From Myxococcota bacterium (GTDB lineage Bacteria > Myxococcota_A > Bradymonadia > UBA4248): a stretch of DNA of 62,778 bases. How positions within the stretch are numbered: the stretch's first letter is position 1; each line of letters begins with the position of its first letter. The stretch is from contig JAZUKH010000265.1 of assembly GCA_045643185.1 (NCBI GenBank), forward strand, positions 1-62,778, read 5' to 3'. Below are positions 30,729-62,748 of the stretch, piece after piece. The notes under the pieces are model-generated. The model had not been told where the DNA came from. It did not search any database and worked only from the letters and a program-made list of their open reading frames with translations. The position numbers and the translations under genes were made by a program.

Positions 30729-30761
30729 CGTTATGAAATGATAATTCATAAGGAAATTGGA

Positions 30762-42342: not shown

Positions 42343-42672
42343 GTGAACTCCTGATATCACTTCGAAAGCATGTTCTTGAGCAATAAAAAATAATCGCGTC
42401 TGACGCCAAAATTTGGGTGAGGCTTTGTGCCTCGTGCCCGTTTTGACGCACGCAACAAACCGGGCCATAAACGTGAGTTTCCTAACCTTATTCAACTCGA
42501 TTGCAAATTTGTCGTAACTATTTTCTGAAAAACGGTTCGCGAAAGGTTTTGTTTTGGCAGCAAAGTAAGCTAAACTTTTTTTCCTTTCGCGCTGAATAGA
42601 AAGAAAAATTGCGTGAAGGGACATCTCACACCAGAAAATGATTCGTTTGGAAGTTTGGAGTCGATCTGTCTC

Positions 42673-45252
42673 ATGAAGCGCACTCAGTCGATTTTGTGTG
42701 TCGTTGCCGTCGTGTCTTTAACGGCGTGTAGTCATGCTCAAGTAGAACCCGTCACGGTCGTGGAAGCACCGGTGATCGTGACTGTCCCTCCATCCGACTG
42801 TGTGCCGAACCGGGATGGCGTGCCGATGTGTGGCGACGCGCCGTTCGTGGTTCAGTGCGGTGAGCTCGGTTTGAGCGAACTGGCGGAAGAAGGCGCCGTG
42901 TGTGAGCGTCAGGGCGATGGCAAGCGCATCGTGCTTCGCGGCGACGTGTTGGCGTTTGATCGCACGTATGCCGGCGGCAGCGTCGTGATCGAAGGTGACC
43001 GCATCGTTTATGTCGGTTGCTCGCCTGATCTGACCGACGCCAGTGTGATCACGTGTCCCGATTCCGTCATCAGTCCGGGGTTGATCAACGCCCATGAACA
43101 TCTAAATTACTCGAATGCTCGTCCGGCCGTGTGGGGCGACGAGCGTTTTGACCATCGTCACGACTGGCGCAAGGGCTTGAACGGCCACACGCTCGTGCCT
43201 GGCCCTTCGACCGACCATAACGATGTGCCTGAGATGCGCGCGCTTTTGAGCGGTACCACGTCCATCTTTGGATCTGGGTCCGAAAAAGGTCTGGTCCGCA
43301 ATCTCGACAAAGAGTCGCCAGTCGGTGATGATACGCATCTGCCGATCTACCAGACGTTTCCGCTTTCCGACCACACGGGCATGCAGATCGAGTCAGGGTG
43401 CGGTTACTCGAAATACGCCAATGATGACCGCGAATCATGCCCGTACGGGCCGCATATCGGTGAAGGCATTAACGACGCGGCGCGCAATGAACTCGTGTGT
43501 TTGAGCAGCGACGAAGGGCGCGACATTTTTAAGTCCAACCTGGCTGTGATCCACGGCGTGGCGGCGACGTCCGAACTCATCGCCAAAATGGCGCAGAATG
43601 ACGTCAAAATGGTGTGGTCGCCGCGCACGAACATTGCGCTTTATGGCGACACGGCGCGCATCACCGCGTTTGACGAACTCGGTGTGACGATCGGTCTTGG
43701 CACCGACTGGATCTACTCGGGTTCGGCAAACATGCTTCGTGAACTTCGCTGCGTGGATGACCTCAACCGCGACTATTTTGGACATCATTTTAGCGATTAT
43801 GCGCTGTGGCTGATGCCGACCGTGGGTTCGGCTGCGGCGCTCGGCGTTTCGCACGTGCTCGGTCGTCTGGCTCCGAACTATGTGGCGGACATCGCGATGT
43901 TTCGCAAGACACCCGACAAACAGGCGCATCGCGCCGTGATCGCAGCCGACAACGCGGACGTGCTGCTCGTCATGTTGGGCGGCAAAGTGGTTTACGGCGA
44001 GTCGTCTGTGATGACGAGTGGCCGTTTCATGGATGTGTGTGGCATTGAAAAGAAGTTCGATAACATAGCCGCACGTTCGGAGGAGTTTGACACGATCGAG
44101 TCGTATGCGGCCTATCCACTGTATTTTTGCGCGGAGCCCGAGGATGAGCCGACCTGTGTGCCGCAGCGCGTTCGTGAGGCTGACACGACGGCGCAGGATC
44201 TGCCGATCTACACGGGCGTGGCGAGCGGCGCAGCCGACGTCCTCGACCGTGATGGCGACGGCGTGCCCGACTCGGTCGATAATTGTCCGGCCGTGTTCAA
44301 TCCGATCCGTCCGACCGACCACCCGCGCGTTCAGTCCGACCTGGACGGCGACGGCGTTGGTGATGCGTGCGACGCCTGGCCCACGTGCAGTGAAAATACG
44401 GCATCCTGTCTCACTTTGAACGCGCACGACCGCGACAATGACGGGGTGCCCAACTTCTTTGACAACTGTCCCAACGACGTTAATCCCGACCAGGCTGACC
44501 GCGACCGCGATGGGCTTGGCGACGCGTGTGACCCCTGCGACGACGCGACTGACCAGGATGGCGATGGCATTGGCGACGCGTGCGACCCCTGCCCGCAGGA
44601 TGGCCAGAATGAAGACGGACTGGGCTGCTCTTTGCCCGTGACGCCCATTTCTGAGATTCGCAACACCCATATCAACGGCACGCTCAAAGAAGATCTGATC
44701 AAAATTCAGGGCGTCGTGACGGGCATCGCGCCGCGTCTGGGCGGCATCGGCGGCATCTTCGTTCAGGATCTGCACGAAAACGTTGCGGTCATGCTCTATC
44801 ACCCTGAAGATGCCCAGAATGTGCGCATCGGCGACCTCATCGAAGTCAAAGGTTCTACCTCGGTCTATTACAGTCTCGTTCAGATCAAACCCACGTCGAT
44901 CAATATTCTTTCCTCCGACCACGCGCGTTTGCCGTTGACCATGACGGCTGAGCAGGCGACGGCCAACACGACGCCCGAAGTGACGCAAAACGCCTTCGAC
45001 AGCGTTCTCATCACGGTTCACGGGCTCACGCTCGACCGTTATGACGAGACTCAGCGCATTGGCGAGTGTTATATGGCCCATGATTCGGAAGGCCATGAAC
45101 TCTGCGTCGACGATTATCTCATCGGCACGGGAAAACTTCAAAATGTGCTCGAAATGAACAAAACGTACGATATTACAGGTATTCTTCTTTACGACTACGG
45201 CCGTGAAAAGCTTGCCCCTCGCCAGCGTGACGATATTTCGGTTTCGCCGTAA
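42673..45252 (+). CDS. Lipoprotein: amidohydrolase-superfamily domain + thrombospondin-type-3 repeats + C-terminal beta-rich module
   Basis: Trimmed to ATG 42673 (lipobox LTAC). GLINAHEHLNYS (HxH metal site) and GLGTDW are present. TSP3-like DRDGDGVPDSVDNCPAVFNP, DLDGDGVGDACD, DRDNDGVPNFFDNCPNDVNPDQADRDRDGLGDACDPCDD. Confidence 0.75.
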   Translation: MKRTQSILCVVAVVSLTACSHAQVEPVTVVEAPVIVTVPPSDCVPNRDGVPMCGDAPFVVQCGELGLSELAEEGAVCERQGDGKRIVLRGDVLAFDRTYAGGSVVIEGDRIVYVGCSPDLTDASVITCPDSVISPGLINAHEHLNYSNARPAVWGDERFDHRHDWRKGLNGHTLVPGPSTDHNDVPEMRALLSGTTSIFGSGSEKGLVRNLDKESPVGDDTHLPIYQTFPLSDHTGMQIESGCGYSKYANDDRESCPYGPHIGEGINDAARNELVCLSSDEGRDIFKSNLAVIHGVAATSELIAKMAQNDVKMVWSPRTNIALYGDTARITAFDELGVTIGLGTDWIYSGSANMLRELRCVDDLNRDYFGHHFSDYALWLMPTVGSAAALGVSHVLGRLAPNYVADIAMFRKTPDKQAHRAVIAADNADVLLVMLGGKVVYGESSVMTSGRFMDVCGIEKKFDNIAARSEEFDTIESYAAYPLYFCAEPEDEPTCVPQRVREADTTAQDLPIYTGVASGAADVLDRDGDGVPDSVDNCPAVFNPIRPTDHPRVQSDLDGDGVGDACDAWPTCSENTASCLTLNAHDRDNDGVPNFFDNCPNDVNPDQADRDRDGLGDACDPCDDATDQDGDGIGDACDPCPQDGQNEDGLGCSLPVTPISEIRNTHINGTLKEDLIKIQGVVTGIAPRLGGIGGIFVQDLHENVAVMLYHPEDAQNVRIGDLIEVKGSTSVYYSLVQIKPTSINILSSDHARLPLTMTAEQATANTTPEVTQNAFDSVLITVHGLTLDRYDETQRIGECYMAHDSEGHELCVDDYLIGTGKLQNVLEMNKTYDITGILLYDYGREKLAPRQRDDISVSP

Positions 45253-45494: not shown

Positions 45495-46010
45495 CTATTT
45501 ACATTCGCCTGATTTTTCTACACAACTATTTGGACATTTTTTGACGTCGAAAACATCATATTTATTCGTTTGATAAAAATAGTGCATTTCATTATTTGTC
45601 GTTTCTTCACAAACCTTGGTATATCGCACGTAACCGCCATCTGGATCAGTTTCACAAACAAATACTTTTTCTCCCGCTTTCGTGCATGGATCTTTTGGGG
45701 TGCAACGAGCTCCCGAGGTCTTACCGGTTAAACACACATTATCTTTCTTATCTGTCAAATTAACAGCGTCAGAGCAATCCAGCGCAGAAACATTAGAAAC
45801 AGTAACATATTCGCCAACATCGCAGAATATAAGATAGTTGTCTACGCAATAGGCAGATTTTTTAGTGCATTCACTTCCTTCTTCCGGCACGATCTTTTTG
45901 CAAGCCGTACCGTCACAATTGTGTATGCAATACTCAATCTCACCTGCATTCATTTCGTTTGGATCATAGCCGTATATACCGTTTCCTTTTATACAAATTG
46001 ACGCAGTGTG
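45495..46010 (-). pseudogene. 5'-truncated fragment of a Cys-rich secreted-protein gene (very AT-rich)
   Basis: The reading frame is open for 19 codons upstream of the first Met (HTASICIKGNGIYGYDPNE-MNAGEIEYC...). It has no start codon, RBS or signal peptide, unlike all paralogues in the window. Sampled 60-nt blocks are 27-43% GC. Confidence 0.5.
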
Positions 46011-46065
46011 TTAATGGTCAGGCAGTATTTTTATTTCAAATATGAAATTTTTATAATTAAATTTT

Positions 46066-46275
46066 GGTGGCGCCGCCTATTGCCGTTGGCAATACGGCGG
46101 ACGCGCGGCGGCTTCTCCCTCGTAAGAGACGCAATATTTTGCGTCTCTACTCGGTCAATACGCCGCCGCTTCTTGGTTTTTTGCGTCCACCGTGGCTGTG
46201 TTGAATGCTACGGAGCTACATGGAAACATCGCTCCTGTTGACGCCCCGCTACGCCTTCGCCTGGCGGGGGCGTCA
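46066..46275. repeat. Composite/degenerate cluster of REP-like modules
   Basis: Contains AAGAGACGCAATATTTTGCGTCTCTAC, AATACGCCGCCGC, GCTACGGAGCTACATGGAAAC (the module also found in copy 6) and CGCCCCGCTACGCCTTCGCCTGGCGGGGGC. Confidence 0.7.
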
Positions 46276-46292
46276 GCAAGGTCCCATTAAAC

Positions 46293-46321
46293 TTGACAAA
46301 GTATGGCTAAATATAAATAAT
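46293..46321 (+). promoter_or_regulatory. Candidate sigma70-type promoter of the vWA/tubulin-like operon
   Basis: TTGACA (46293-46298) - N17 - AATAAT (46316-46321), 76 nt upstream of the ATG at 46397, in an AT-rich tract. Confidence 0.45.
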
Positions 46322-46396
46322 TGCTAATAAATTAACAACGGTGTTGTTAAAGCCAGGATGGCCTTCAATCATTAATTAATTAGTTAGGATAAAACG

Positions 46397-48685
46397 ATGA
46401 AAAGACTGGCGATTTTAGGAACGGCAGCATTGGCGTCGATGTGCATGTGTGGCATGGCGTATGCGGATACCTATGTTCCTTCACGGACGATCAGTCTTGT
46501 GTATGACGATTCCGGAAGTATGTCGAACCTTGGCACGATCCAGTCGCCGACCTGCGTTGACACGTGGAGCCAGGCTCGCTATGCCATGGAGATCATGGCG
46601 TCGATGTTGGACGAACGGGATCAGCTCAACATCTATTATATGAGCGATTACGAGACGTCTCAGGATGCGCCGCCTCGTCTTCGCCTCAAAGGCAGCCGCG
46701 ATGCGCACGAGATCGAACAGAATGTCGAGCGCGTCCACCAGACGCTCACGCGTGCCGGTGAAACGCCCTTCAACAGCGTTCGCAAAGCCTATAAGGACTT
46801 GGCACATACGGCTTCGGACGAAAACTGGCTCGTCGTACTTACCGATGGTGAGTTTCAGGGCGTCAACGGGCGTATCGAGGACGAGTTCCATAAATACACC
46901 AAGAATCGCCGCGTCAAAGTGATGATGCTCGCCATGGGCGAACAGGCGTCGTTGATCGAAAGTGATGAAGAAAACGGCATCTATTTCGAACATGCCGTGA
47001 CCTCTAAACAGATCCGTTCAAAGCTGACCAAGCTGACGAACCGCATCTTTCAGCGCAACGCGCTGCCGCAAAAGAACGTGGCGACGGTGAGCTTCGACGT
47101 GCCGATGCGTGAGCTCATCGTGTTTGCCCAGGGTAAAGACGTTTCGATCACGAGTTTGTCGACGGAGGGCAAGACCGTGACCCCGTCGTCGAACATTCAC
47201 GCGATGTATTCAAAACAGGCTGCGGAACCGCGTCCGACGTGCAACGTCTTTGACGAGTCGCTGAACGGCAAAGTGGCGACGTTTGACGGTGACTTTGATG
47301 CCGGTACTTATACGATCAACCTCACTGGTTCGCCGGACTCCATCGAGGTCTATTACAAGCCCAATGTCGACGTCCAAATGTATTTTTATGACGGCGTTGG
47401 TAAAGACGTGACCGATAAAGCCAAGTTGAGCAATGGCAAGTACCGTGTTGGTTTTGGCTTTGTGAAGGCTGGCACGAAGGACGCCGTGCCAGCATCGCCG
47501 TTGCTCGGTAATGCGGAATACACGGCCAAGCTCGTCAACAATGACGCTGAACCTGTGACGGTGCATGACGGCGATGTGATTACGATCAGCGAGGGCACGC
47601 TCGTCGGTGACTTCGAAGCGACGTTTTTGAAATATAACCAGGTGCACACGCAGCTGGCGCCGCGCACCATCTTTTTTACAAACGAACTGGTCTGGCAGGT
47701 CGCGTCCCAGGCTCAGCCGCTGGTGCTGACGGCTGATGGCGTAAAAAGTGGCAACGGTGACCTCACGGCACACGTTCGCATGAAGAATAACGAAGGCTCC
47801 GTGAGCGAGCTGACGGACGCGCAGTGGCAGGCCGTCGAGTCGGTCGATGCCGTCGAGATCTTGCCGCCGCCTGACAAGCCACAAAAAAGTCACAGACACA
47901 AGAAAAAGCCCAAAGAACAGCCAAAACGTTTTGTGTTCCAGGCGAACAAGGGCGCCGCAAACGGTGATGTGGCCCTCGACGCCGTTTCGCAGGGCGATCC
48001 CATGATGTTGTGTATGCCCAAAGCCTGGTCGATCACCAAAGCTTTTAAGATCTGGCGCGGTATCGATATTTGCGAAAACGAAAAATTCGTTTATCGCGCC
48101 TGCACCGAGTTTGCGATGGGCGAATCGACCGCTTACGGTTGTTCCGAAGACACACAGGTTCAGGTCAAAAATGGCCTGTCCGGCTTCAGCTTCGTTTTGC
48201 GCTTTTTCCAGGACTGGTGGGGAATGCTCGTCGCCTTGTTCCTGATCTTTGGCTGGGTCAAAAAGCACTGGATGCCTGCGATCGATCGTCGCGTCAAAAT
48301 TCAGATGAAGTCTCAGAATTTCACGACGCGTGACCAGGAGACGAGCGGTCGTTATCAAAGATGTTGGCTCAACTTTTTGCCGTATCGAGACAGTACGGGA
48401 ACGGTGTCGTTAGGCGGCAGCGTCAAAGCAGATGTGCCCAAAACGTTGGAATTGCGTTCCATGGGCGGCAGTAAGTTGAATTTGACCAATGCGTCTAAGT
48501 TTGCTGGCAAAAAGCAGATCACTTTCAATTCGAAAAATGTGGATGAGAGCTACGGCGCCAAGGCGGGTAAAAAACGCGCCAAAAAGCCGTTCGCATTCAA
48601 TACAGAGCAACCCATTGTCATTAAATCAAAAGATTTTACCTATTCATTTGTGCTTCACTCGAAGAAGCTCAGACGACGTAAATAA
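46397..48685 (+). CDS. Exported von Willebrand factor A (vWA) domain protein with a C-terminal TM anchor and basic cytoplasmic tail
   Basis: 762 aa. Signal peptide ends AYA|DT. MIDAS residues: DDSGSM (DxSxS), T in GETPFNS, D in VVLTDGE. One TM helix (WWGMLVALFLIFGWV) lies about 130 aa before the C-terminus. Confidence 0.8.
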   Translation: MKRLAILGTAALASMCMCGMAYADTYVPSRTISLVYDDSGSMSNLGTIQSPTCVDTWSQARYAMEIMASMLDERDQLNIYYMSDYETSQDAPPRLRLKGSRDAHEIEQNVERVHQTLTRAGETPFNSVRKAYKDLAHTASDENWLVVLTDGEFQGVNGRIEDEFHKYTKNRRVKVMMLAMGEQASLIESDEENGIYFEHAVTSKQIRSKLTKLTNRIFQRNALPQKNVATVSFDVPMRELIVFAQGKDVSITSLSTEGKTVTPSSNIHAMYSKQAAEPRPTCNVFDESLNGKVATFDGDFDAGTYTINLTGSPDSIEVYYKPNVDVQMYFYDGVGKDVTDKAKLSNGKYRVGFGFVKAGTKDAVPASPLLGNAEYTAKLVNNDAEPVTVHDGDVITISEGTLVGDFEATFLKYNQVHTQLAPRTIFFTNELVWQVASQAQPLVLTADGVKSGNGDLTAHVRMKNNEGSVSELTDAQWQAVESVDAVEILPPPDKPQKSHRHKKKPKEQPKRFVFQANKGAANGDVALDAVSQGDPMMLCMPKAWSITKAFKIWRGIDICENEKFVYRACTEFAMGESTAYGCSEDTQVQVKNGLSGFSFVLRFFQDWWGMLVALFLIFGWVKKHWMPAIDRRVKIQMKSQNFTTRDQETSGRYQRCWLNFLPYRDSTGTVSLGGSVKADVPKTLELRSMGGSKLNLTNASKFAGKKQITFNSKNVDESYGAKAGKKRAKKPFAFNTEQPIVIKSKDFTYSFVLHSKKLRRRK

Positions 48686-48697
48686 AGGAGAAAACAG

Positions 48698-51600
48698 ATG
48701 ATAGCACCGACATTGTTGATTGGTCTTGGTGGTACGGGATCAAAGATCGTTTGCCGAGTCTCAAAGATGGTTACAGAAGAACAGCGCCGTCGCATTGGCT
48801 TCGCTGTTTTTGATACGGACGTCAACGAGCTTCGTGAGATTCAGGAAGCCAATCCGTTTATCGCAGTGATCCAGACGTCGACGAAGTTGAGCGTGGGTGA
48901 GTATTTGAACATCGACACGTACGCTAGGGACAACTGGTTCCCGGTGAACTCGATCCTGAACAGCAAAACATTGACGGAAGGCGCTGGTCAGGTTCGCGCG
49001 ATCTCACGTCTGGCGCTCGACACGGCGATCCGTGCCAACCTGATGACGCCGTTGCACAAATGCATCGAGAACCTTTACAAACTCGAAGAAGATCAGACGA
49101 GCCAGGCTTTGCGCGTGATCATCGTCAGCTCACTCGCCGGCGGCACCGGTTCGGGCTTGATCTTGCCCGTCGCGCTCTATCTGCGTAATTACTTGGCGAC
49201 GCGTTTTCAGCAGAGTGCCAACATTACACGCGGTTTCTTCATTTTGCCCGAGGTGTTCTACGAAGTCATTCACGGCTCGGCTGAACAAAATAATCTCAAG
49301 TGTAATGCCTACGCGACGTTGCGCGAACTCGACGCGTTTTTGATGAAGGGCGACGGCACGCTGCCGGCGCGTTTTGAAAAAAGCGTGCGTTTGGAATTCC
49401 CGCGCACCGGTTCCGAAAACCACGAAGAATATCAGGTCCGTCCGTACGATTTCTGCTTCCTGTTCGATGCCCAGAACACCGAAGGTAAGAAACTCAATGA
49501 CTTTAACCAATATTTGGATCACGCAGCCAACTGCATCTATGCGCAGTCGATCGGGCCGATGAACAAACGCAGCAACTCGAGCGAAGACAATACGATCCGT
49601 GCTTTGGCGCGCGAACATGGGCGTAACCGCTATGCCGGTGCTGGTTGCTCCATGCTCATCTACCCGTTCGAGGAAGTGCGCGAATACGTGGCCATCAAGT
49701 GGACGCAGCAATGCGTTTCAAACGAGTGGCTGCGTTTCGATAAAATGTACTCCGACAAAAAGAACAAACAGTCGGAAATGCGCGAACAGGGCATCTTGGT
49801 CGGTGATACGATCCGCGGCGATGACTACATCATGACGATCGAATCGCTCGCCAATCAACGTGATCCGTTTGCCAAAACCATGCAGAATCAGTGTATGCGC
49901 TATGGCAACGACGGGTTGGAGGTGCTTGGCAACAAGTGGGATGAATACATCCGTGAATTGAAAAAATTCGTCGAAAACGAAGCGAAGAATCAGTCCGACC
50001 TGGATAGTCAGCGCGATGCGTCACTCGCGCGTCTTTCGGATGTCGAAGGTGATCCCGATACCTATCCCAAGCTTCAGGACGCCATTCGCGAAATTATGAA
50101 ATATTACAACATGGTCGAACGCAAATGCGATGACAAGGCTTCGACCATCGCTTACACGATCTTTCAGGGGCAATCCACCAACGTCACCGCTGAAAGCCGC
50201 GGCTATCAGCTCGAAAGTTATTTGCGCGACGGTTCGGGGGCGTTTATGCATCCGAATGCCGTGCGATACTTCCTCTACCAGGCTAAGAATCGATTCGTTC
50301 AGGAACAGAAAGTGAACGACAACCGCCTCAAAGAGCTGAACGACGCCTTTGGTAAGGACGGGATCGAAGCGATTCTCGATGATCCCAATACGGACGAAGT
50401 GGAGAATATCGACAATCTTGCCGACCGTAAGCGTTCGCTGCGCGACAAATTAAAGAATGCCATGGGTAAACTGACCGACGATCAGGAAGACATGAAGGCG
50501 TCTTTCCAGGGCTTGATCACGAAAGCTGACGAACTGCGCGTTGTGGGCATTCTGAAATATGTGTTCAAAGAAGGTCTGGATTATTTGAACGGCTTGATCG
50601 AAGCCTTCGAGCGCTTTTATGACAACTTTGAACAGAAGGTCAACGGCATGTCGAAGCGACTCGCTGAGATCTCGAAAAAATGCACGAATCAGCCAGGGAA
50701 AACGACGCGTTATGTCTGCTCATCGACGATCTGCTTGAATCGCATGGTCGAAAAACTGGCTTACAAAGGCAGCGTCGTGTCTGTGGACAGCCGTCTGGCC
50801 GACGAGATCTACTCGAAGGTCCGTGGCTATGCCATGGCGAAAGACAAACCGAAAAATGCGTTTGAGACGATCTTTGATGAAGGCATCATCGGTTATTTCA
50901 AAAAACAGATGATGGAGACTTATGGCTCGAAGATCGACATGAACATCATGGACGCGTTGGAACGCGAGGTCGAGTTGGAATCGGGCGAAACCGATATGCC
51001 GCAGGTCATGCTGGATCAGCGCGTGAAGCAGATCATCGAAAATACGCGCGACATGTCGAAGCCGTTCATCGAACGTCCAATGGGTGAAGAAGTGGCCCCG
51101 ATCTCGGCGTGTACCTACAACCCAAGTTTGGACCCGAAAGACGACTCGCCGCGTTCGTCGTTCATTCATCGTGAACTGTCAAACTACGGCGGCACGCCGG
51201 ACGACGATATTTCGCGTTACACGATCATGTTTTACCAGTCGATCTACTCGTTACGCGCGAATCGCCTGTCGAAATTCAGCCCGTCGATCAGCAGCGTGGA
51301 CGGACAAGCGGGCGAGTATTTCAGAGCGTATTATGAACTGGTGAACCAGATCACGCCGATGTCGAACAAGACACCGGTCATTACGCCGCATATCGACTGT
51401 CGTTGGCACGTCGTGGCGAACATGCCCGACCTGGACGATGGCAACCAGAAACGCATTGAAACCCGTATTTACAAGGCATTCATGCTCGGCTTGTTGTATC
51501 ACGTGATCGACTGTGGCAAGACAGCGCGTGGTCGCATTTTGTACAAGCTGCGTTTGAGCGGTTGCGCGCCTGAAGAGTTCGTGGTGTCGAACAAAACGCC

Positions 51601-52264
51601 GTGCGACGAATTCTACGAAGTGCTGGATGCGTTGACGATCAACCCGGTCATCGTGAACCAGATCATGGAAGACGCCGAACGTCGTTTGAAACGTGAGATC
51701 ATCGCCAAGACCTCGTTTGAGCGTTCCATGCTGTATAAGATGATCAAAAGCCTCGTGCTTGAACAGTATCCGATGTTCAAACAGATCACGTTGTTCGACC
51801 TTTGCACGTTGTTGAAAGTCTCAACGCCGTCGGCGAACTTCGACAATGCGACCGGCATCGACATCATGCGTGCCATGTTCGACACCGTGTATGATTACAT
51901 GACGAAGATCATGCCCCAAAGCGAAGTCGAAGTGGCTTATGGCAAATTCCTGAATGAGCAATACAACCTGTTTGAAAAGAACCTGGTGAATTATCGCAAC
52001 ATTCAGGACTGTGAAGGCGTCGCCACGGATTGTCTCAAAAATTGCGATTTTGTCGATTTCGTCGATGATATGGTGTTGGCACTCAATCACATTCTCGAAA
52101 CGCTGGAACTGGATTCGACGCGTGACGAGATCGAGACGCGTTGGCATCTGAAAAAGCGAGGCATTCGTGAGTTGACTGAGCCTGCAGAGTCGAGTGAAAG
52201 CGTGCTGAACTCGTCGGATGAAGCCGCGTTGAACCTCAACCCGGACGATGGTTGGCAAGTCTAG
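48698..52264 (+). CDS. Giant tubulin/FtsZ-superfamily GTPase-like protein (N-terminal ~230 aa) with a ~950-aa helical extension
   Basis: 1188 aa, RBS AAGGAG, start 12 nt after the vWA stop. It has collinear FtsZ-like motifs: T1 LIGLGGTGSKIV, FAVFDTDVNEL (cf NTDAQAL), T3 TEGAGQVRAISR (cf GLGAGA), and the T4 tubulin signature AGGTGSG (aa 147-153, nt 49136-49156). After T4 comes FFILPEVF...NAYATLRELD. Confidence 0.8.
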   Translation: MIAPTLLIGLGGTGSKIVCRVSKMVTEEQRRRIGFAVFDTDVNELREIQEANPFIAVIQTSTKLSVGEYLNIDTYARDNWFPVNSILNSKTLTEGAGQVRAISRLALDTAIRANLMTPLHKCIENLYKLEEDQTSQALRVIIVSSLAGGTGSGLILPVALYLRNYLATRFQQSANITRGFFILPEVFYEVIHGSAEQNNLKCNAYATLRELDAFLMKGDGTLPARFEKSVRLEFPRTGSENHEEYQVRPYDFCFLFDAQNTEGKKLNDFNQYLDHAANCIYAQSIGPMNKRSNSSEDNTIRALAREHGRNRYAGAGCSMLIYPFEEVREYVAIKWTQQCVSNEWLRFDKMYSDKKNKQSEMREQGILVGDTIRGDDYIMTIESLANQRDPFAKTMQNQCMRYGNDGLEVLGNKWDEYIRELKKFVENEAKNQSDLDSQRDASLARLSDVEGDPDTYPKLQDAIREIMKYYNMVERKCDDKASTIAYTIFQGQSTNVTAESRGYQLESYLRDGSGAFMHPNAVRYFLYQAKNRFVQEQKVNDNRLKELNDAFGKDGIEAILDDPNTDEVENIDNLADRKRSLRDKLKNAMGKLTDDQEDMKASFQGLITKADELRVVGILKYVFKEGLDYLNGLIEAFERFYDNFEQKVNGMSKRLAEISKKCTNQPGKTTRYVCSSTICLNRMVEKLAYKGSVVSVDSRLADEIYSKVRGYAMAKDKPKNAFETIFDEGIIGYFKKQMMETYGSKIDMNIMDALEREVELESGETDMPQVMLDQRVKQIIENTRDMSKPFIERPMGEEVAPISACTYNPSLDPKDDSPRSSFIHRELSNYGGTPDDDISRYTIMFYQSIYSLRANRLSKFSPSISSVDGQAGEYFRAYYELVNQITPMSNKTPVITPHIDCRWHVVANMPDLDDGNQKRIETRIYKAFMLGLLYHVIDCGKTARGRILYKLRLSGCAPEEFVVSNKTPCDEFYEVLDALTINPVIVNQIMEDAERRLKREIIAKTSFERSMLYKMIKSLVLEQYPMFKQITLFDLCTLLKVSTPSANFDNATGIDIMRAMFDTVYDYMTKIMPQSEVEVAYGKFLNEQYNLFEKNLVNYRNIQDCEGVATDCLKNCDFVDFVDDMVLALNHILETLELDSTRDEIETRWHLKKRGIRELTEPAESSESVLNSSDEAALNLNPDDGWQV

Positions 52265-52312
52265 TTACGCCGTGCCGGTGCACGGCGAGTGATGGCATAT
52301 CACGCCGTCGTG

Positions 52313-52447
52313 CGTGCCGTAGGCAGAGAGGGTAGCGGCGTATTGGCGATGGCGATGTTTCCATGTAGCGCCGTAGCATGCTACGGCGTTACATGGAAAC
52401 GATAAATCGCCGCCAATAGCCGCGTAGGGGGAGACTTCCCCCTCCCC
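52313..52447. repeat. REP-like element, copy 6 (forward orientation), inside the operon between genes 2 and 3
   Basis: GTGCCGTAGGCAGAGAGGGTAGCGGCGTATT - core GGCGATGGCGATGTTTCCATGTAGCGCCGTAGCATGCTACGGCGTTACATGGAAACGATAAATCGCCGCC - AATAGCCGCGTAGGGGGAGACTTCCCCCTCCCC. Confidence 0.9.
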
Positions 52448-52523
52448 AAAAACACAAGAGTTCTTTGAAAACCGCTCACTTCGGGGCTCAAAGCGATCAC
52501 CCAAGTGAAAAAGGTTGAGGAAT

Positions 52524-54545
52524 ATGTACACCGTCATCATCGTCAACAAGCGCACTTCAGACTTTATGCAGTCGCATCGATTTTTGTTCGAGCCGTTTAT
52601 TCGCAACGGTGAGCTGGATATTTGCGACTGGAATGAGGGCGGAACGGACGTGAATTCGTCGATTCCGGATCTTTACAAGCTGATTCGCGGCAAGCGCATT
52701 TGGCGCGCGCTGATTTTGAATACGGATTCGCTTGTGGGGTATCATGGCTGCGCGATGCCGAAGCGCGATAATCCGTACGATTTTTCGGACCTGGATGATG
52801 AGATCATGCCGCATGAGAGCCCGATTCCATTGATTCGTCTGACGCACATTTTGGGCGGATACGCGTCGGCGCCGCAAAAATCGTTCGAGAAAGGCTTTGA
52901 ATACGTCGATCAGGAAAGCGGCGAAATCGTTCGAAGACTAGAAAGTGAGCTGTCGTTGGAGGATCTGAGCGAGTTGTCGGATCAGTACGGCGAGTCGCTC
53001 AAAGCCGTGTATATGGAAAAGCCTGAAGATGCGAGTTTTGCGCAGAAACAGGCGGAAATGGCCGAGCGATATACGTTTGACTCGGTTCGTCCGCGCGAGA
53101 TCATGCTTGTTTCGACGCGTCAGAAGAACGAAGAGAACGACCGTCGCAAGATCGTGGCGTCGTGGCTCGACCATTTGGAGACGGGCAGTTCGAGTTTTTG
53201 GGAACGCAATAAATACCCGAATTGTTGTCGCTTCATGTTTTGTGAGATCAGTCGCACGGACAACGCGCGGTATGAGCAGGACGTGTGTCAATTTTGGCTT
53301 GCTGTTCTGACGTTGGCGTTAAATCAGATCTCGCCGAGTTCGCTTCAGGCTTATCGCTTGTATAAATTGAGCGTGGATCTTTCGATGGAGGTGCTTCAGG
53401 CGCGTATTTGTCAGCACCTGAACCTTCTGGAGTCGGCGAAGCGTGTGGTCAATGACGCGTTGGCGCAGTTGCCGGAATACGATTTTGCGACGGACGAACA
53501 GGTCTTGGCGATCGAAAAGGTGCCTTTGGTCGTCGAAACGAAGGACGACGGCGAATCGCCTTTGGAAGTCAAGGCGGACGCGTACGTGAAACACGATGAC
53601 ACGTTGGGCAGCTACGCCACGATGCGCGCACAAAGTCAGAAAAACCTCGCCCGACAAATGCAGAACCCCCGGCGAGGTATCGATCGCGCGGCCAAACTCG
53701 TGCGAAGTAAGGCGAAAGGCTATTACGGCACTTATTGTGAACTGGATGAATTTCAGATCGATGATCTAAAAGAATCGGTCCGCGATTATGAGCTTAAGGT
53801 GTTCACGACGCGGCCTAAGAATATATATAATAAGAAAAAGACCATGGAAAAAGGCGCCGAGGTCGTTCGGAACCTTCAACTGGAGATTCCGGAGCCGATG
53901 ACGAGCTATCAGTTGATCGTCGCCGGTGTCATCGCGCTCGTCCTGGTGATTTTGGGCAATTTGACCTATTTGGTGGATTCGTATGACGCGGGGACGTTGC
54001 TCGAAGCGTTTTTGCTGACCGTCGCCATCGTTTTGGTGACCGCCATTGGCGGCATTGTGGCGCTCAAATGGCACCAGTCTGTCATGGAACAAAAAATTTC
54101 GGCGCTGCAAAAGCCCATTCGTGATCACGCCAACGAGATCCAAAAAAGCAATGCCCTGTTTGAAGACTATTTCACAAATGTTTGCACTTATATGAAAGGT
54201 CGCTCCATGCTGATCGGAACACAAATGTGTGACGATGACTGCACGACCGATCGAAAACGTTATAGTGCGCACCTCAAAGCCTTGTCAAAAGCCATTGAGC
54301 GCGATCAGAAATGGTTATTTAATTATGATATTAAGCGCATCAATGAAGAAAAAATATATAATATCGATAAGATCTTCGATGTGAACGAATTGCCCATTAA
54401 TAATAAATTATATTGGTTTGAACCGAATGAAGAAACGGATTCCATTGTGTTGAATGCGACCGGGGATACCTGTAACGCGCCGTACAAGTTCGTGACGCGC
54501 TTGTACGTTGAACGCGAAGAGATCTTTGATGATGCGGAGAAATAA
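52524..54545 (+). CDS. Hypothetical protein with a large N-terminal soluble part and a TM hairpin (no recognisable domain)
   Basis: The ORF track starts at TTG 52515. ATG 52524 is preferred but uncertain. Two adjacent TM helices are present (LIVAGVIALVLVILGNLTYLV, FLLTVAIVLVTAIGGIVALKW). I see no catalytic motif. Confidence 0.7.
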   Translation: MYTVIIVNKRTSDFMQSHRFLFEPFIRNGELDICDWNEGGTDVNSSIPDLYKLIRGKRIWRALILNTDSLVGYHGCAMPKRDNPYDFSDLDDEIMPHESPIPLIRLTHILGGYASAPQKSFEKGFEYVDQESGEIVRRLESELSLEDLSELSDQYGESLKAVYMEKPEDASFAQKQAEMAERYTFDSVRPREIMLVSTRQKNEENDRRKIVASWLDHLETGSSSFWERNKYPNCCRFMFCEISRTDNARYEQDVCQFWLAVLTLALNQISPSSLQAYRLYKLSVDLSMEVLQARICQHLNLLESAKRVVNDALAQLPEYDFATDEQVLAIEKVPLVVETKDDGESPLEVKADAYVKHDDTLGSYATMRAQSQKNLARQMQNPRRGIDRAAKLVRSKAKGYYGTYCELDEFQIDDLKESVRDYELKVFTTRPKNIYNKKKTMEKGAEVVRNLQLEIPEPMTSYQLIVAGVIALVLVILGNLTYLVDSYDAGTLLEAFLLTVAIVLVTAIGGIVALKWHQSVMEQKISALQKPIRDHANEIQKSNALFEDYFTNVCTYMKGRSMLIGTQMCDDDCTTDRKRYSAHLKALSKAIERDQKWLFNYDIKRINEEKIYNIDKIFDVNELPINNKLYWFEPNEETDSIVLNATGDTCNAPYKFVTRLYVEREEIFDDAEK

Positions 54546-57500
54546 ATGATGGATCAGATGTCTTTATTTCATTCGATTTTATGGTGTTTCGGTTTTTTGA
54601 TGATCAGCGTAGCGTGCATAGCGATCAATTTGCCGAAACCGAATCGCGGCCGCCAATTTTTGTTGCCGATCGTCGCGGTGATCTTCAGCATCGTGGCTAT
54701 GGTCGGTATTGAAGAGATCTCTGAAGAAGTTCAGGGCGTCATTGAGCAGTCGCCGCTGATCTTGTTGTTGATCGGCAATGTCGAGATCGGCGCAGCCCTG
54801 ATCTACGTGGTCAACATCGCTATCGTGGGCGCGTTCTTTTTGACCAAGGCTGTGCTTTTGCCCGTCGTTAATTTGATCTGGCGCAAAGAAGCCGTCATGG
54901 AACTCACGTCGGGCTATTTCTATGACCACATCGTGATTTCTTCAGCCAAACCAGCCAAGAATAGCGACGCGTCGGATGAAGACGAAGGGGAGGACGAGGA
55001 AGACAAGGTCGAATCGTCTGACCAGGAAGACGAAGACCAAAACGTCGAAGCCAAGTCGTCGAAGGAGGACGCTGACAAAAACTCGTCCAAGAAAGACGAG
55101 CCTGACGAAGAATGGATCGTCAAAAAAGAATTTCTGCAATTCAAGACCTATTATTGGGGCTTCTATGCCGCGTTGTTGGTCGTCATCACGACGATCTTTT
55201 TGCTTTCCCAGTATTTTCCGGATTGGGAAGTCTTTGAAGCGATCTTTTACCCGGCTTTTGCCGTGTTGATCTTGGGCGAAGTGGCGTGTTACCTGTCCGG
55301 TAAAGAAGAACGAACGCCGTTGCCGCCCGCGCCCGAGAAGGTCAAAAAGCCTGAACCTGTGCCGGAATATGACTTTTTGCGCAAGATCATGCGCGACTTG
55401 TTTGGTGATCGCGATCTGCATGACTGTGTGTTGATGCCTGAAGCCATAACGAGCGATGAACAGCGTCATTTGGATCGACTGAGTGCAAGTCCGGACGAGA
55501 CGGATAAACTCGTCTCGGCGTATTTTGAACGTTTGCAGCAGGAAGGCATTGGTCTGGATGAGAACGGCATCGACATGACGACGTGGCTCATGCACGGTCA
55601 CAGCGTGTTGGTGTGTAACCCGTTCTACAAGGATCTGACGCACTACTTGTTGATGCCGATGATCCACCACTTGATGGATTTTCACAAATGCCTCGTGGTG
55701 GTCGGGCGCGATTCGGCGGTTGACGATGTTAAAGCCTGGTTGGAACGCGGCATTCTCGATTTTTCGGGCACGAATAGCTTGTGGCACACCGAGGTCGTTT
55801 CAAAACTGGCTTGTGAGGCCGACGTGGGCGTGTTGCGCGCGTGCGACTTGTATAATCAGGAGATCATCGATAACAATCGCGCGTTTTGGTCGCAGGTCGG
55901 TTTTGTGTTTATCGTGGAACCGTCGCGCATTTTGGCGACGGCACAAATGGGTCTGAGCATTTTGATCAGCCATTGCGAGCGCGCCGACAAAGAGATCGTT
56001 TACTGTGCGTGTGATCGCAACTGCGACGGGCTTGTCGATAGCCTTTCACACGTGCTGCGCACGAGTTTGACCGAGGTCAGCGCGACGCCACTGGGCAACG
56101 CGTGCTCGTCACAGATGTTCTGGCAGGCCAACGGGGCTTTCATTCAACACCGCATTTTCCCCGCCATTTCACGTTACTTGGGCATGGGCACCGAGTTTGG
56201 GGCGCTCGCCCTCAAACATCACATCACGCCGACGACCTGGCTCAGTTGTGACAAGTTCCCCGTCGTGGACATGAAATGGGTGAGCGGTCAATACTATCGT
56301 CAGATCTGCCAGTTCACGGCTTTGCCCGTTAGCCAGGCTGAGTTCAACGCAGCATTTCTCGTGCAGCCAAATTTGTGGCACGAAGAAAAGCGCGAAAATG
56401 CCTACCTCACGGTGGAAGACGAGTTTCAAAACCTGTTCGAAGTGTCGCGCATCTTCATGTCGCGTGCGACGAAGCAGAGTTTTATCAACGTCATCAGCGA
56501 AAACTACTTTTTGCGAGACTACATGGTGGCGAATGTTCAGACGTTTATGGGCGACATGAAAGCGCTTCCGACGATCGTGCCGGACTTCGCACGCACCGAA
56601 CGCAACGTCGTGCTTAAGCTCGTCATGATGATGTTGAACGGGGTCGTGCGCGATGACATCATCGAGCGCGAGTTTAGACTTTGTGGCATCGCTTATCACG
56701 ACATTTACACGAAGCTCGTCGAGCTCATCGCCAAACACTGCGGTGTTGAAGATCCAAGGCTGAGCGTGCACTTTGATGAGGAAGTGGTTGAAAACGCGTT
56801 GGAATCGCGACAGATCCGTTCGTACGACATCAAAGACAACGTTGCGTTGTCGGCATACGCTCGGACGCTTCAGACGGCGTATTTTGTGGCCGAAGACGAG
56901 GTGGATGCGAGCCATCATTTGGGCGCCAAACTCTATGGTCACGTGTTCCAGACGGTGTTGCCCGGCCAGTACATCACGTTTGAAGGCAAGTACTACGAAG
57001 TTTTGCGCGTGACGCCTGAGAGCAGCATTGTCGTGCGCCGCGCGGCGGATCATTTGAGCGACCGCGTTTATTATCGTCAACTTCGTAAGATCCACCTTCA
57101 TCGTTGGGTTGCCGACGAGGCGATGGGCGCCAACCGCGTGTTTTCGCAGATCGGTCTGACGCGTGGCTTCGTCGATTTTGACGTCTCGACCCTCGGCTAT
57201 CTTGAACTTTCGTCGTATGAAGATCTAAAGACCGCGCGCCGCGTCGTTGTGAGTGGCATTCCATCGCGTTCGTATGTCAACAAGAGCGCGTTGCGCGTTC
57301 GGTTGCCAGGTGTCAGCCGCGAAACGCTGTTCACGATCTGTTTGCTTCTCAACGAGATCTTCCGCACGACCTATCCGGATTCCAACCAGTTTGTGGCGGC
57401 GGTGCTGCCGACCGAGGCGTATGCGGATTCGGCGTTGAGCGAAGCCGTTTACGGCTTCGAGGGTGAGTGTGAACCTGACTGCTTTTATATTCTGGAAGAC

Positions 57501-58025
57501 AGCGTTATCGACCTCGGATTGGTCGTTTCGGTCGAGCGCAATCTCAAGCGTTACTTTGAGATCATCACCGAAGTTTTGGCCTGGCACCTCGAAAAACTCG
57601 TCGAAGTGCCTGAACCGACTGATTCGGATGAAGAAGCCAAGGCTCATGACGCGGCGAAAGACGAGCTCGTCGAAACCGCGGAAGTTGCCCCCGTTAAAGA
57701 AAAGATGGGGCTGTTTGCCCGCATCATCGCCTGGTTCAAGAACCTGTTCGTGGGGGGCGACCTCAAAAACGTGGCGGATGAATTGCCTGACGAGACACAA
57801 AACAAGGATACCGCCAAAAAAGCTGAAGAAAAGCCCGTGCTGAAACCGTTGCCCTATGCCGAACGTTGTTTCCTCAAATACGGTTTTGAGGCGTTCGATC
57901 CGATGTTAGACGTGGAACAAACGCTTGCCTATCTTTGCCAGTTTGGTTTTGAGCACAACGCCCTGGCTTCGGTGCGCGAAGCCGCGCAGTCGCGACAAAA
58001 AGAAGCAGGTCGAACGGCTGAGTAA
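54546..58025 (+). CDS. Hypothetical polytopic membrane protein with an acidic linker and a ~880-aa cytoplasmic region (no recognisable domain)
   Basis: 1159 aa. The ATG directly follows the upstream TAA (TAAATG). About 4 N-terminal TM helices, a D/E/K/S-rich stretch (DASDEDEGEDEEDKVESSDQEDEDQ...), then 2 more TM helices and a large soluble region without a P-loop. Confidence 0.75.
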   Translation: MMDQMSLFHSILWCFGFLMISVACIAINLPKPNRGRQFLLPIVAVIFSIVAMVGIEEISEEVQGVIEQSPLILLLIGNVEIGAALIYVVNIAIVGAFFLTKAVLLPVVNLIWRKEAVMELTSGYFYDHIVISSAKPAKNSDASDEDEGEDEEDKVESSDQEDEDQNVEAKSSKEDADKNSSKKDEPDEEWIVKKEFLQFKTYYWGFYAALLVVITTIFLLSQYFPDWEVFEAIFYPAFAVLILGEVACYLSGKEERTPLPPAPEKVKKPEPVPEYDFLRKIMRDLFGDRDLHDCVLMPEAITSDEQRHLDRLSASPDETDKLVSAYFERLQQEGIGLDENGIDMTTWLMHGHSVLVCNPFYKDLTHYLLMPMIHHLMDFHKCLVVVGRDSAVDDVKAWLERGILDFSGTNSLWHTEVVSKLACEADVGVLRACDLYNQEIIDNNRAFWSQVGFVFIVEPSRILATAQMGLSILISHCERADKEIVYCACDRNCDGLVDSLSHVLRTSLTEVSATPLGNACSSQMFWQANGAFIQHRIFPAISRYLGMGTEFGALALKHHITPTTWLSCDKFPVVDMKWVSGQYYRQICQFTALPVSQAEFNAAFLVQPNLWHEEKRENAYLTVEDEFQNLFEVSRIFMSRATKQSFINVISENYFLRDYMVANVQTFMGDMKALPTIVPDFARTERNVVLKLVMMMLNGVVRDDIIEREFRLCGIAYHDIYTKLVELIAKHCGVEDPRLSVHFDEEVVENALESRQIRSYDIKDNVALSAYARTLQTAYFVAEDEVDASHHLGAKLYGHVFQTVLPGQYITFEGKYYEVLRVTPESSIVVRRAADHLSDRVYYRQLRKIHLHRWVADEAMGANRVFSQIGLTRGFVDFDVSTLGYLELSSYEDLKTARRVVVSGIPSRSYVNKSALRVRLPGVSRETLFTICLLLNEIFRTTYPDSNQFVAAVLPTEAYADSALSEAVYGFEGECEPDCFYILEDSVIDLGLVVSVERNLKRYFEIITEVLAWHLEKLVEVPEPTDSDEEAKAHDAAKDELVETAEVAPVKEKMGLFARIIAWFKNLFVGGDLKNVADELPDETQNKDTAKKAEEKPVLKPLPYAERCFLKYGFEAFDPMLDVEQTLAYLCQFGFEHNALASVREAAQSRQKEAGRTAE

Positions 58026-58081
58026 CCGTATCGCAGGTGACATCACCAGTTATGAAAAGTCGAGATGCTGGTGATGGTCGA

Positions 58082-58109
58082 TTTGAGCGCGCGAAAAGGC
58101 GCGCTCAAA
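58082..58109. terminator. Hairpin terminator between the convergent operon end and the ankyrin gene
   Basis: TTTGAGCGCGC-gaaaag-GCGCGCTCAAA (11-bp stem), followed by CGCATTTTGTG. A second hairpin CATCACCAG/CTGGTGATG lies at 58043-58078. Confidence 0.6.
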
Positions 58110-58138
58110 CGCATTTTGTGTTTGTGTGCGATCACGCG

Positions 58139-59035
58139 TTACTTTTTTTCAGTTTTGGGCGCGGCACTGAGGACGTCGAGGATCGCCTGGTTGCCGTCGG
58201 GCAAATGATAATCGGTGGCCTGAATGACTTGGCTGGGCGTGATACCGTCGTTGTCTTTGAGCTGGGCATCAGCGCCAGCCGCGATCAGCGCCGACGTGAT
58301 CTTGGGGTCGAGGGCAAAAAAGATCGGTGAGCGGCCACGACTGTCGGTTGCATTGACGTCGGCGCCGCCCGCGATCAGGGCTGTCACAAGGTCGGCATTG
58401 AGTGTGCGATACACGACTTTGGCGTCGTACGTGTTGTTTGGATTCACGACGTGGTCTTTGGTGTGCACCGTGTAGGGATTTGGATCGGTCAGGTCGATGA
58501 CGTTCTGAATGACTTTTTGCTGGTCACCCTCGATCAGGTTCTGGTGTATCGAGGTGGCGTAGTGCAGTGCCGTATAGCCATTGATGTCGCGTTTGGTCAG
58601 GTCGGCTTTGCCGGCAATGAGTTTTTGCACGACATCGAGGTCCTGATGGACAATGGCGAGCATGAGCGCTGTGACTTCGGGACCGACCTGGACGTCAAGA
58701 TCGGCGCCGGCCGCGATGAGCAGGTCGATCGTGTCGTGATTGGCAAAGAAAATGGCCGTCTTGCCGTCAAATGACGGCAGATTGACATCGGCTTTGGCCG
58801 TGATCAGGGATCTCACCGACGCAGCGTCACGAGCAACCATGAGCGGCGTCAGGCCTTCGTGGTTTTGCGCGTTGATGTCGCTGTTCAGAATGATGGCGTC
58901 GACATTGGTCGAGTCGATATAGCAATTGGATTGCGGCCATTGCTTACAGGCGGTCGGGGCGGGAACGCTCGTGGACTGGCAGGCACTCAAGAGCGTGAAA
59001 GCCAACATGGATGAGAGAATGAGTGACTTTTTCAT
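58139..59035 (-). CDS. Ankyrin-repeat lipoprotein
   Basis: 298 aa, lipobox LSAC. Several ANK-like units are present (GLTPLMVA...LI.AKADVN, GYTALHYA, GRSPIFFA...LIAAGAD). It starts 20 nt after the dnaE stop. Confidence 0.8.
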   Translation of the reverse strand: MKKSLILSSMLAFTLLSACQSTSVPAPTACKQWPQSNCYIDSTNVDAIILNSDINAQNHEGLTPLMVARDAASVRSLITAKADVNLPSFDGKTAIFFANHDTIDLLIAAGADLDVQVGPEVTALMLAIVHQDLDVVQKLIAGKADLTKRDINGYTALHYATSIHQNLIEGDQQKVIQNVIDLTDPNPYTVHTKDHVVNPNNTYDAKVVYRTLNADLVTALIAGGADVNATDSRGRSPIFFALDPKITSALIAAGADAQLKDNDGITPSQVIQATDYHLPDGNQAILDVLSAAPKTEKK

Positions 59036-62670: not shown

Positions 62671-62748
62671 GTGAAATTCTCAACCAATAAAGAATTGTGC
62701 AGAAACAGAGAAATGGCCGTGTCGTCGGGATGGCGTTTGGGATTTTGG

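Follow-up and report, generated by a model that had tools for sequence, protein, structure and literature searches.

A member of the FtsZl1 (Tubulin_2) family with a predicted tubulin-fold head, encoded in a conserved four-gene operon of a Myxococcota bacterium

We analyzed a 62,778-nucleotide stretch of a Myxococcota genome assembly (GCA_045643185.1, contig JAZUKH010000265.1; hereafter the window), which encodes, in an open reading frame at positions 48698-52264 of the forward strand, a protein of 1188 amino acids (aa) that starts with tubulin-like sequence motifs. This protein belongs to the FtsZl1 ('FtsZ-like 1') family, which corresponds to the Pfam family Tubulin_2, and its gene is the second of four genes (46397-58025) that form one operon, in the order vWA, FtsZl1, B5, B12. 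The family, its domain architecture, and this operon variant were all catalogued in 2010, and the copy described here is a further family member.

Identification of the FtsZl1 protein

An earlier note on this DNA, made from the sequence without database searches, had proposed a divergent tubulin/FtsZ-superfamily GTPase head followed by a long, mostly helical region, and had suggested a hidden Markov model (HMM) search. This search matched the Pfam model Tubulin_2 (PF13809) with 207.7 bits (E=4.1e-61, cut-off 27), aa 6-340 of the protein corresponding to positions 1-355 of the 356 positions of the model; a chance match is excluded. The Pfam Tubulin model (PF00091) scored 28.3 bits around the T4 loop, under its cut-off of 33, and neither FtsZ_C nor Tubulin_C had a Pfam match in the protein. 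The gene and the regions of its product are as follows.

48698-52264, forward strand: FtsZl1/Tubulin_2 gene, second gene of the cassette, 1188 aa (translation, HMM, model, fold search)
48698-49732, forward strand: predicted tubulin/FtsZ-fold GTPase domain, aa 1-345 (Tubulin_2, AlphaFold2, Foldseek)
49553-49594, forward strand: candidate T7/H8 'synergy' segment, aa 286-299, GPMNKRSNSSEDNT (conservation, predicted topology)
49733-51067, forward strand: predicted helical stalk/coiled-coil, aa 346-790, 71% helix (AlphaFold2 secondary structure)
51068-51607, forward strand: conserved region, predicted mixed alpha/beta, aa 791-970 (conservation, AlphaFold2)
51608-52177, forward strand: predicted C-terminal helical domain, aa 971-1160, 79% helix (AlphaFold2)

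The FtsZl1 family was defined by comparative genomics by Makarova and Koonin (Biol Direct 2010; PMC2875224), who described proteins of 1100-1200 aa that consist of an FtsZ-like head, an extended coiled-coil, and an alpha-helical tail, encoded in operons that hold a vWA gene (COG2304) and genes for membrane proteins. They argued that FtsZl1 is not a division gene and suggested that its operons encode a 'membrane remodelling machine'. More recently, the 'FtsZ-like' group was equated with Pfam Tubulin_2 by Santana-Molina et al. (2023). The name given in RefSeq/NCBI to relatives of the protein is 'tubulin-like doman-containing protein'. The view of the earlier note that this is a long helical protein distinct from FtsZ, TubZ, and BtubA/B thus stands, whereas the architecture is not unprecedented, as it is the one that defines the FtsZl1 family.

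Sequence motifs and predicted fold of the head

The reading frame is preceded by a Shine-Dalgarno sequence, AAAGGAG, located 8 nt 5' of the ATG codon. Its translation contains six motifs, all at the residues where the earlier note had placed them: LLIGLGGTGSKIV (aa 6-18), FAVFDTDVNEL (aa 35-45), LTEGAGQVRAISR (aa 92-104), IIVSSLAGGTGSG (aa 141-153), FFILPEVF (aa 180-187), and NAYATLRELD (aa 203-212). The phosphate-binding loops of the head are intact, namely T1 GLGGTG (loop span G9-G14), T3 EGAGQVR (G95-R100), and T4 AGGTGSG (G148-G153). The fit of T4 to the tubulin signature, also remarked upon before, is exact, and AGGTGSG at aa 147-153 is the single match to the PROSITE-type pattern [SAG]GGTG[SA]G in the six-frame translation of the whole window. 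Examination of 129 diverse family sequences revealed that G9, G11, G12, G14, D39, G95, A96, R100, G148-G151, G153, and N203 are invariant in all of them. The FtsZl1 head likely binds GTP.

The motifs were compared with those of FtsZ at the level of profiles. When a profile of the 129 family members was set against a thin profile of three FtsZ sequences, aa 3-191 aligned with residues 11-141 of E. coli FtsZ (E=2.6e-4, probability 42%), pairing GLGGTGS with GVGGGGG (T1), FAVFDTDVNEL with FFAVNTDAQAL, SSLAGGTGSG with AAGMGGGTGTG (T4), and FFILPEVF with VVTKPFNFEG (S5), in agreement with the pairings first made by eye. The T3 loop was misplaced in this run because the family has an insertion of ~40 residues after S3. 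Its proposed pairing agrees with a published PROMALS3D alignment (PMC2875224), where GAGQVRA..ISRLA of the close relative BACCAP_04123 stands against GAGANPE..VGRNA of E. coli FtsZ and GAGNNWA of tubulin.

The structure of the 1188-aa protein was predicted with AlphaFold2. A first model, for which the alignment was limited to 56 close homologues with identities of 49% or more, had its most conserved head loops at a predicted local distance difference test score (pLDDT) below 50 and gave no significant match in a Foldseek search. The successful model was built from an alignment of 65 diverse homologues, down to 23% identity, and has a mean pLDDT of 89.5 and a predicted TM-score (pTM) of 0.79; all statements on predicted structure below refer to it. 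The predicted order of elements in aa 1-345 is S1-H1-S2-H2-S3-[~40-aa insert]-H3-S4-H4-S5-H5-S6-H7-H8-S7-H9, with pLDDT mostly above 85.

In the Foldseek search of this model against the Protein Data Bank (PDB), all 50 top matches are tubulin-superfamily proteins, with probability 1.00 and 340-380 aligned columns, and 168 matches have E<=1e-3. The top matches are gamma-tubulin (E=1.5e-5), CetZ1/2, alpha/beta-tubulin, TubZ (2xka), and FtsZ, and in a library of viral structures phage FtsZ, tubulin, and PhuZ lead the matches. The best structural neighbors, gamma-tubulin, alpha/beta-tubulin, and CetZ (E from 1.5e-5 to ~4e-4 over 350-380 columns), are only 10-15% identical to FtsZl1, from which the tubulins deviate in the model by a root-mean-square deviation (RMSD) of 5-7 Å; FtsZl1 gave no match to Tubulin_C, and its operon and membrane context is unrelated to theirs. 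According to the model, the head is a tubulin/FtsZ-fold GTP-binding domain. The earlier note had stated that its proposal would fall if no match to the tubulin/FtsZ clan was obtained and the predicted fold was not the Rossmann-like tubulin GTPase fold; the clan match was obtained, and the fold search returned tubulin-superfamily structures throughout its top 50. Its reading of the head thus agrees with the HMM match, the profile comparison, and the fold search.

Candidate T7 segment and the second half of the head

Beyond T1, T3, and T4, the strongest conserved block of the family is P287..N293-S-x-E296-D297-N298, represented by NSSEDN (aa 293-298) in the present protein. Its N298 is invariant, and S294, E296, and D297 are kept in at least 90% of the 129 sequences, down to 24% identity. 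The elements predicted in this part of the head are S6 (aa 252-256), H7 (269-285), H8 (289-305), S7 (312-321), and H9 (324-340), which places NSSEDN between H7 and S7, i.e., at the T7/H8 position of the catalytic Asp/Glu of FtsZ and tubulin. We regard NSxEDN as a plausible candidate for the T7 loop. No clear T7 equivalent had been noticed when the sequence was first read; a candidate can now be named, its role as T7 being putative. In a local profile alignment limited to a cropped region, GPMNKRSNSSEDNTIRAL is matched with PGLMNVDFADVRTVM of FtsZ, and RNRYAGAG with GYAMMGSG (E=0.19, not significant), and a greedy profile run (mact 0.05) gave a zero-confidence continuation past H5 against FtsZ.

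In the 2010 analysis, FtsZl1 could be aligned only up to helix H5, T6-H7, T7, and the C-terminal domain were not found, and the absence of filaments was raised as a possibility (PMC2875224). Going beyond that description, the fold match of the present model seems to run past H5, and H7, a T7-like acidic loop, and H8-S7 are probably retained in the predicted fold.

Tail of the protein

The tail (aa 346-1188) is predicted to be 61% helix and 6% strand, in line with the earlier note, which had called it mostly helical; the exception is the mixed alpha/beta region at aa 791-970. The stalk at aa 346-790, with its longest predicted helix at aa 594-661 (68 residues), fits the 'extended coiled-coil' given for FtsZl1 (PMC2875224). 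Within aa 791-970, Y878, H898, and W903 are invariant family-wide, and the motifs ITPHID and PDLD are conserved. They are part of a conserved module located ~450 residues downstream of the T7 candidate (aa ~789-912: PFIE, Y850, G872, Y878, ITPHID, W903, PDLD), in which strands are predicted. The final ~24 residues of the protein are disordered and acidic. A relationship of the helical tail to SMC/Rad50-like proteins was considered and rejected, as its matches were all non-significant and of the kind that long coiled coils often give.

The four-gene operon and the partner proteins

The four genes are enclosed by a promoter-like and a terminator-like site. In addition to the FtsZl1 gene, the operon comprises the following features.

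46293-46321, forward strand: promoter-like site TTGACA-17-AATAAT, ~75 bp upstream of gene 1
46397-48685, forward strand: gene 1, 762-aa divergent vWA protein (weak VWA_2 match, MIDAS, topology)
52265-52523: intergenic gap of ~250 bp between genes 2 and 3, with a REP/MITE-like repeat (AATAGCCGCGTAGGGGGAGACTTCCCCCTCCC) and a palindrome (repeat search)
52524-54545, forward strand: gene 3, 673-aa 'B5' family protein (open reading frame, topology, gene order)
54546-58025, forward strand: gene 4, 1159-aa polytopic 'B12' family protein (open reading frame, topology, gene order)
58082-58109, forward strand: terminator-like hairpin with an 11-bp stem, 7 GC pairs, and a T-rich tail, 57 nt past the stop codon of gene 4

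The promoter-like site, a consensus match only, agrees with the consensus at 11 of 12 positions and is the best-scoring one in 45900-58300. Gene 1 is the counterpart of the vWA genes (COG2304) in the operons described in 2010 (PMC2875224). Its product, a vWA protein, has a signal peptide (aa 1-23), the vWA domain, beta-rich middle domains, a transmembrane segment at ~597-617, read from the sequence and lying below the hydropathy threshold that we applied, and a basic cytoplasmic tail of ~140 aa. The VWA_2 model gives it 16.9 bits, and nine of its 34 orthologues match this model (best E=2.7e-6). Its MIDAS site is intact (D37-x-S39-x-S41, T123, and D150), and none of these residues varies among the 34 orthologues. 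The signal peptide and the single C-terminal transmembrane segment with its basic tail imply that the metal-binding vWA domain is located outside the cytoplasmic membrane.

Gene 3 likely starts at the ATG codon at 52524 and not at the TTG codon at 52515. Its product consists of a cytoplasmic region of ~460 aa, a hairpin of two transmembrane segments (aa ~465-515), and a C-terminal region of ~150 aa, and neither this protein nor its 34 orthologues revealed a credible Pfam or PDB-profile similarity. The product of gene 4 begins with ~5 transmembrane segments, all within aa 1-250; an acidic linker follows, and then a cytoplasmic region of ~900 aa that bears the invariant acidic motifs CDRNCDGLVD and VEDEFxN. 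By sequence, it had no similarity in Pfam, PDB, NCBIfam, or PADLOC. NCBIfam and PADLOC searches gave no matches for any protein of the cassette. Gene 4 ends before the Zn-ribbon and HExxH (HELTHIWQY) zincin-like module that is fused to most of its orthologues (1340-1450 aa) and is encoded by a separate 285-aa gene in some other loci. No remnant of this module was found in the window.

The same variant, vWA-FtsZl1-B5-B12, was already tabulated for two organisms in Additional file 5 of PMC2875224: Ruminococcus lactaris (RUMLAC_01529-01526) and Bacteroides capillosus (BACCAP_04124-04121). The likeness extends to the HMM family, the architecture, and the gene order, and the R. lactaris proteins have 732, 1136, 678, and 1418 aa versus 762, 1188, 673, and 1159 aa in the window. 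The copy in the window differs from the operons of 2010 in the absence of the Zn-ribbon/zincin tail from B12 and in the insertion of a REP-like repeat between gene 2 and gene 3, where the clostridial orthologous operons have a gap of only ~30 bp; its host is a member of Myxococcota, whereas those operons are found in relatives of Clostridium.

One copy of a REP/MITE-like (repetitive extragenic palindrome/miniature inverted-repeat transposable element) family thus sits inside the operon. The same gap contains a near-perfect palindrome of 44 nt, GTTTCCATGTAGCGCCGTAGCATGCTACGGCGTTACATGGAAAC, at 52357-52400, and a partial inverted copy of this palindrome is located at 46200-46232, 5' of the vWA gene and beside the promoter-like site.

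Distribution and genomic neighborhoods

A word-indexed search yielded 1810 homologues of the 1188-aa protein, the best 120 of which are full-length and 49-66% identical; no protein found exceeded 66% identity. Few of these 120 come from named organisms, and those that do are from Clostridia or from metagenome-assembled genomes (MAGs) labeled 'Proteobacteria'. An exhaustive search gave 2679 representatives of 50%-identity clusters at E<=1e-3 (505 of them at E<=1e-30), and full-length collinearity holds down to ~25% identity.

A locus scan, restricted to one genome per species, returned 80 loci, and 84 related loci were examined in all. In all 84, wherever the contig extends that far, the order vWA, FtsZl1, B5, B12 is kept, with the four genes on one strand. 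The clostridial carriers are Acutalibacteraceae, Lachnospiraceae, Oscillospiraceae, Ruminococcus, Butyrivibrio, Faecalicatena contorta, and Dorea ammoniilytica; others belong to Erysipelotrichales and Actinomycetota (Leucobacter, Microbacterium, Humibacter, Naasia, Actinomyces), and several gut Myxococcota/'Proteobacteria' MAGs carry the cassette, including the two closest relatives (65-66%); an organism of this kind is the probable source of the window. The genes flanking the cassette are unrelated between loci, and its taxonomic distribution is patchy. The cassette is an accessory, horizontally spread module and not a cell-division FtsZ locus.

Genes downstream of the cassette in other loci encode FtsK/SpoIIIE-type ATPases (22 loci), HExxH peptidase-like proteins (13), RCK-domain membrane proteins (12 and 6), secreted GmrSD_C-like nuclease-like proteins (9), and transglutaminase-like proteins (8). 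None of these recurring accessory genes is present in the window, where the immediate neighbors of the cassette encode an amidohydrolase/thrombospondin type-3 (TSP3) repeat protein, a small Cys-rich protein, an ankyrin protein, and DnaE. Against PADLOC, the accessory genes of the other loci gave only generic matches to ATPase or TIR domains. At one locus, from an Oscillospiraceae MAG (L004), the cassette is flanked by a gene for a 1000-aa TIR and HD protein (1922-4939, reverse strand); downstream lies a gene for a 1171-aa ATPase of the FtsK/SpoIIIE family (19697-23212, forward strand), and it is this ATPase that is found directly downstream in the 22 loci.

A record named 'UNVERIFIED: Bacteriophage sp.' (MT836542.1) carries an FtsZl1 gene whose product is 60% identical to ours, and a phage origin was therefore considered; yet its gene order is that of the R. 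lactaris chromosome. This record is a 9.8-kb scaffold from a human fecal virome, in which the upstream reading frames of 269, 739, and 732 aa follow the order of RUMLAC_01531 to 01529, and it is probably bacterial rather than phage DNA. The plasmid matches to the 1188-aa protein are seven in number and all distant.

Proposed mechanism and alternative explanations

The best explanation of these data, and in our judgment a reasonably probable one, is a GTP-regulated, membrane-attached assembly formed by FtsZl1 and its three membrane partners. It starts from the family membership, the fold, the conservation of the operon, and the topology of the partners, to which polymerization of FtsZl1 is added as a plausible inferred property. 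GTP binding would cause the tubulin-like heads to associate head to tail, each subunit completing the GTPase site of its neighbor with its acidic T7-like loop. Through the long helical tails, the assembly would be anchored to the vWA, B5, and B12 proteins at their cytoplasmic parts, and this scaffold could link what happens at the extracytoplasmic vWA/MIDAS domain with the cytoplasmic face. For the biological role of the operon, we infer that the output may be remodeling of the membrane or envelope, or else signaling. In functional terms only, bacterial dynamin-like proteins are analogous, with a large GTPase head, a long helical stalk, membrane-protein neighbors, and a proposed role in remodeling, but they have a P-loop fold, whereas the predicted fold of FtsZl1 is that of tubulin. 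The sole dynamin match in Foldseek (5oxf, E=1.1) was not significant and came from the poor first model.

Several observations weigh against this explanation or parts of it. The Foldseek RMSDs are high (5-11 Å) and the TM-scores modest (0.34-0.48, normalized by target length). A single-sequence search of the PDB gave no match, and a family-profile search was marginal, with gamma-tubulin at E=0.07 (around T4) and FtsZ at E=7.7. The probability given by hhalign against the three-sequence FtsZ profile is only 42-60%. The assignment of T7 is based on position and conservation, the direct alignment to FtsZ T7 being non-significant, and in the model the acidic residues lie within helix H8 as defined by DSSP, after an H7-H8 loop of just three residues. 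Past S7-H9, the model continues with helices, and a contiguous C-terminal domain S8-S10 like that of FtsZ and tubulin is not apparent; the longitudinal interface could thus differ or be absent, a point also made by the authors of the 2010 analysis. Finally, the literature searched for FtsZl1/Tubulin_2 contained no experiment on any member, including any data on GTP-dependent polymerization.

The three-residue H7-H8 loop and the lack of a contiguous S8-S10 domain in the model also speak for a GTPase that does not polymerize, acting as a monomeric or dimeric nucleotide switch in which NSxEDN serves an intramolecular or partner-binding function. This possibility, which we consider doubtful, is consistent with the failure to align T6-H7 and the C-terminal domain in 2010 and with the suggestion made there that filaments may be absent, and the conserved segment at aa 789-912 might contact the head of its own chain. 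On the other hand, the Foldseek alignments of 340-380 columns cover nearly whole FtsZ or CetZ chains and thus extend beyond the nucleotide-binding half, and the conserved acidic/amide cluster at the T7/H8 position is what a polymerization-activated GTPase requires. A conventional cytoskeletal role, either as a second division FtsZ or as a DNA-segregation filament of the TubZ/PhuZ type, is highly improbable, even though the superfamily fold is common to all of them and a copy occurs on the 'Bacteriophage sp.' record, itself an unverified scaffold with bacterial gene order. FtsZ and FtsZl1 have the fold in common and are collinear in loops T1, T3, and T4, in S5, and in the DTD/NTD strand, and a T7-like acidic segment is possible, but FtsZl1 has the ~40-aa insertion before T3, an extra tail of ~840 aa, and neither FtsZ_C nor a C-terminal FtsA/ZipA-binding peptide, and this accessory gene has no dcw or essential context, none being seen among the neighbors in the window. 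TubZ and PhuZ are likewise divergent prokaryotic tubulin-fold GTPases and are among the structural matches; however, they have 300-480 aa, act with centromere-binding partners, and reside on mobile DNA of plasmids and phages, whereas FtsZl1, which is three times as large as FtsZ or TubZ, is chromosomal, is accompanied by membrane proteins, and lacks TubR/tubC-like partners.

The main rival explanation concerns the purpose of the whole cassette. As a conflict or defense module, it would sense an invader or envelope insult through vWA/MIDAS, use the tubulin-like NTPase as a switch or scaffold, and act through variable partners as effectors: the zincin peptidase, the FtsK-like ATPase, the RCK-type channel-like protein, and the secreted GmrSD_C-like nuclease. 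The patchy occurrence across phyla with unrelated flanks, the variable downstream accessory genes, the HExxH module fused to B12 in many loci, and the TIR-HD neighbor at one locus are all compatible with such a function, as are the MotA/TolQ-like and OmpA/MotB-like genes in other variants of FtsZl1 operons, a pairing that recalls ZorAB of Zorya. Nevertheless, PADLOC-DB 2.0 matches none of the four cassette proteins; the cassette lies outside a defense island in the window, ~39 kb from an Hma system; this copy has neither the putative effector genes nor the zincin tail; and no phage-resistance phenotype or link to defense was found in the literature searched. We thus consider a defense function, and the effector roles it would assign, unlikely.

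The membrane-attached assembly can be extended to a more detailed scheme, in which NSxEDN would be a true T7/H8 loop, the module at aa ~790-915 would complete or regulate the head, and GTP-driven submembrane filaments would be wired to an exported MIDAS-vWA receptor together with B5 and B12. Taken as a whole, this scheme is improbable. If true, it would amount to a prokaryotic outside-in device resembling an 'integrin-to-cytoskeleton' connection, possibly an envelope-triggered conflict system.

Other features of the window

An Hma-type anti-phage system occupies 367-7452 on the forward strand. It consists of an HmaC-like ATPase (367-3780; 958 bits in PADLOC, with a DUF499 match), which bears an additional Swt1-like HEPN domain at its N terminus (aa 10-126), and the SNF2 helicase HmaA (3892-7452; 1365 bits), with a C-terminal NOV_C domain. 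Dense short repeats at 1-263 and 3785-3891 (CTAAATCCTAAT..., complement AGGATTTAGG...) flank HmaC and precede HmaA, and an exact direct repeat of 84 nt is found at 1-84 and 86-169.

The intergenic REP/MITE-like family has the sequence AATAGCCGCGTA with the hairpin GGGGGAGACTTCCCCC and occurs in both orientations, with copies at 17918-17949, 19655-19691, 30757-30791, 34601-34639, 52415-52450, and 62743-62778. It is often accompanied by a second module, GTAGCGGCGTATTGG (17837, 34525, 52316).

Two genes on the forward strand, 42613-45252 and 7820-10273, encode large proteins with TSP3 repeats; one of these proteins is a fusion with an amidohydrolase domain and an OB fold, and the other is weakly similar to TraB of myxobacterial outer-membrane exchange. 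Both fit a Myxococcota-like host. The window also encodes a Ser/Thr protein kinase of 1063 aa, to which an AAA_16 (STAND-like) ATPase and TPR repeats are fused (26112-29303, forward strand), and an AAA+ ATPase of 757 aa that includes a winged-helix domain (20408-22681, reverse strand).

Implications

As a discovery, the present copy matters little, and the family already receives its label from automatic annotation pipelines. It is a reminder that FtsZl1, a branch that is among the most divergent in the tubulin superfamily, spans thousands of 50%-identity clusters and is frequent in gut Clostridia, Actinomycetota, and Myxococcota. Cultured carriers usable for genetics include Faecalicatena contorta, Dorea ammoniilytica, Butyrivibrio sp. 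FCS014, Leucobacter salsicius, and Microbacterium koreense, and the structural model, together with the T7-like motif, gives handles for testing polymerization in this family, namely E296, D297, N298, and the glycines of T4.

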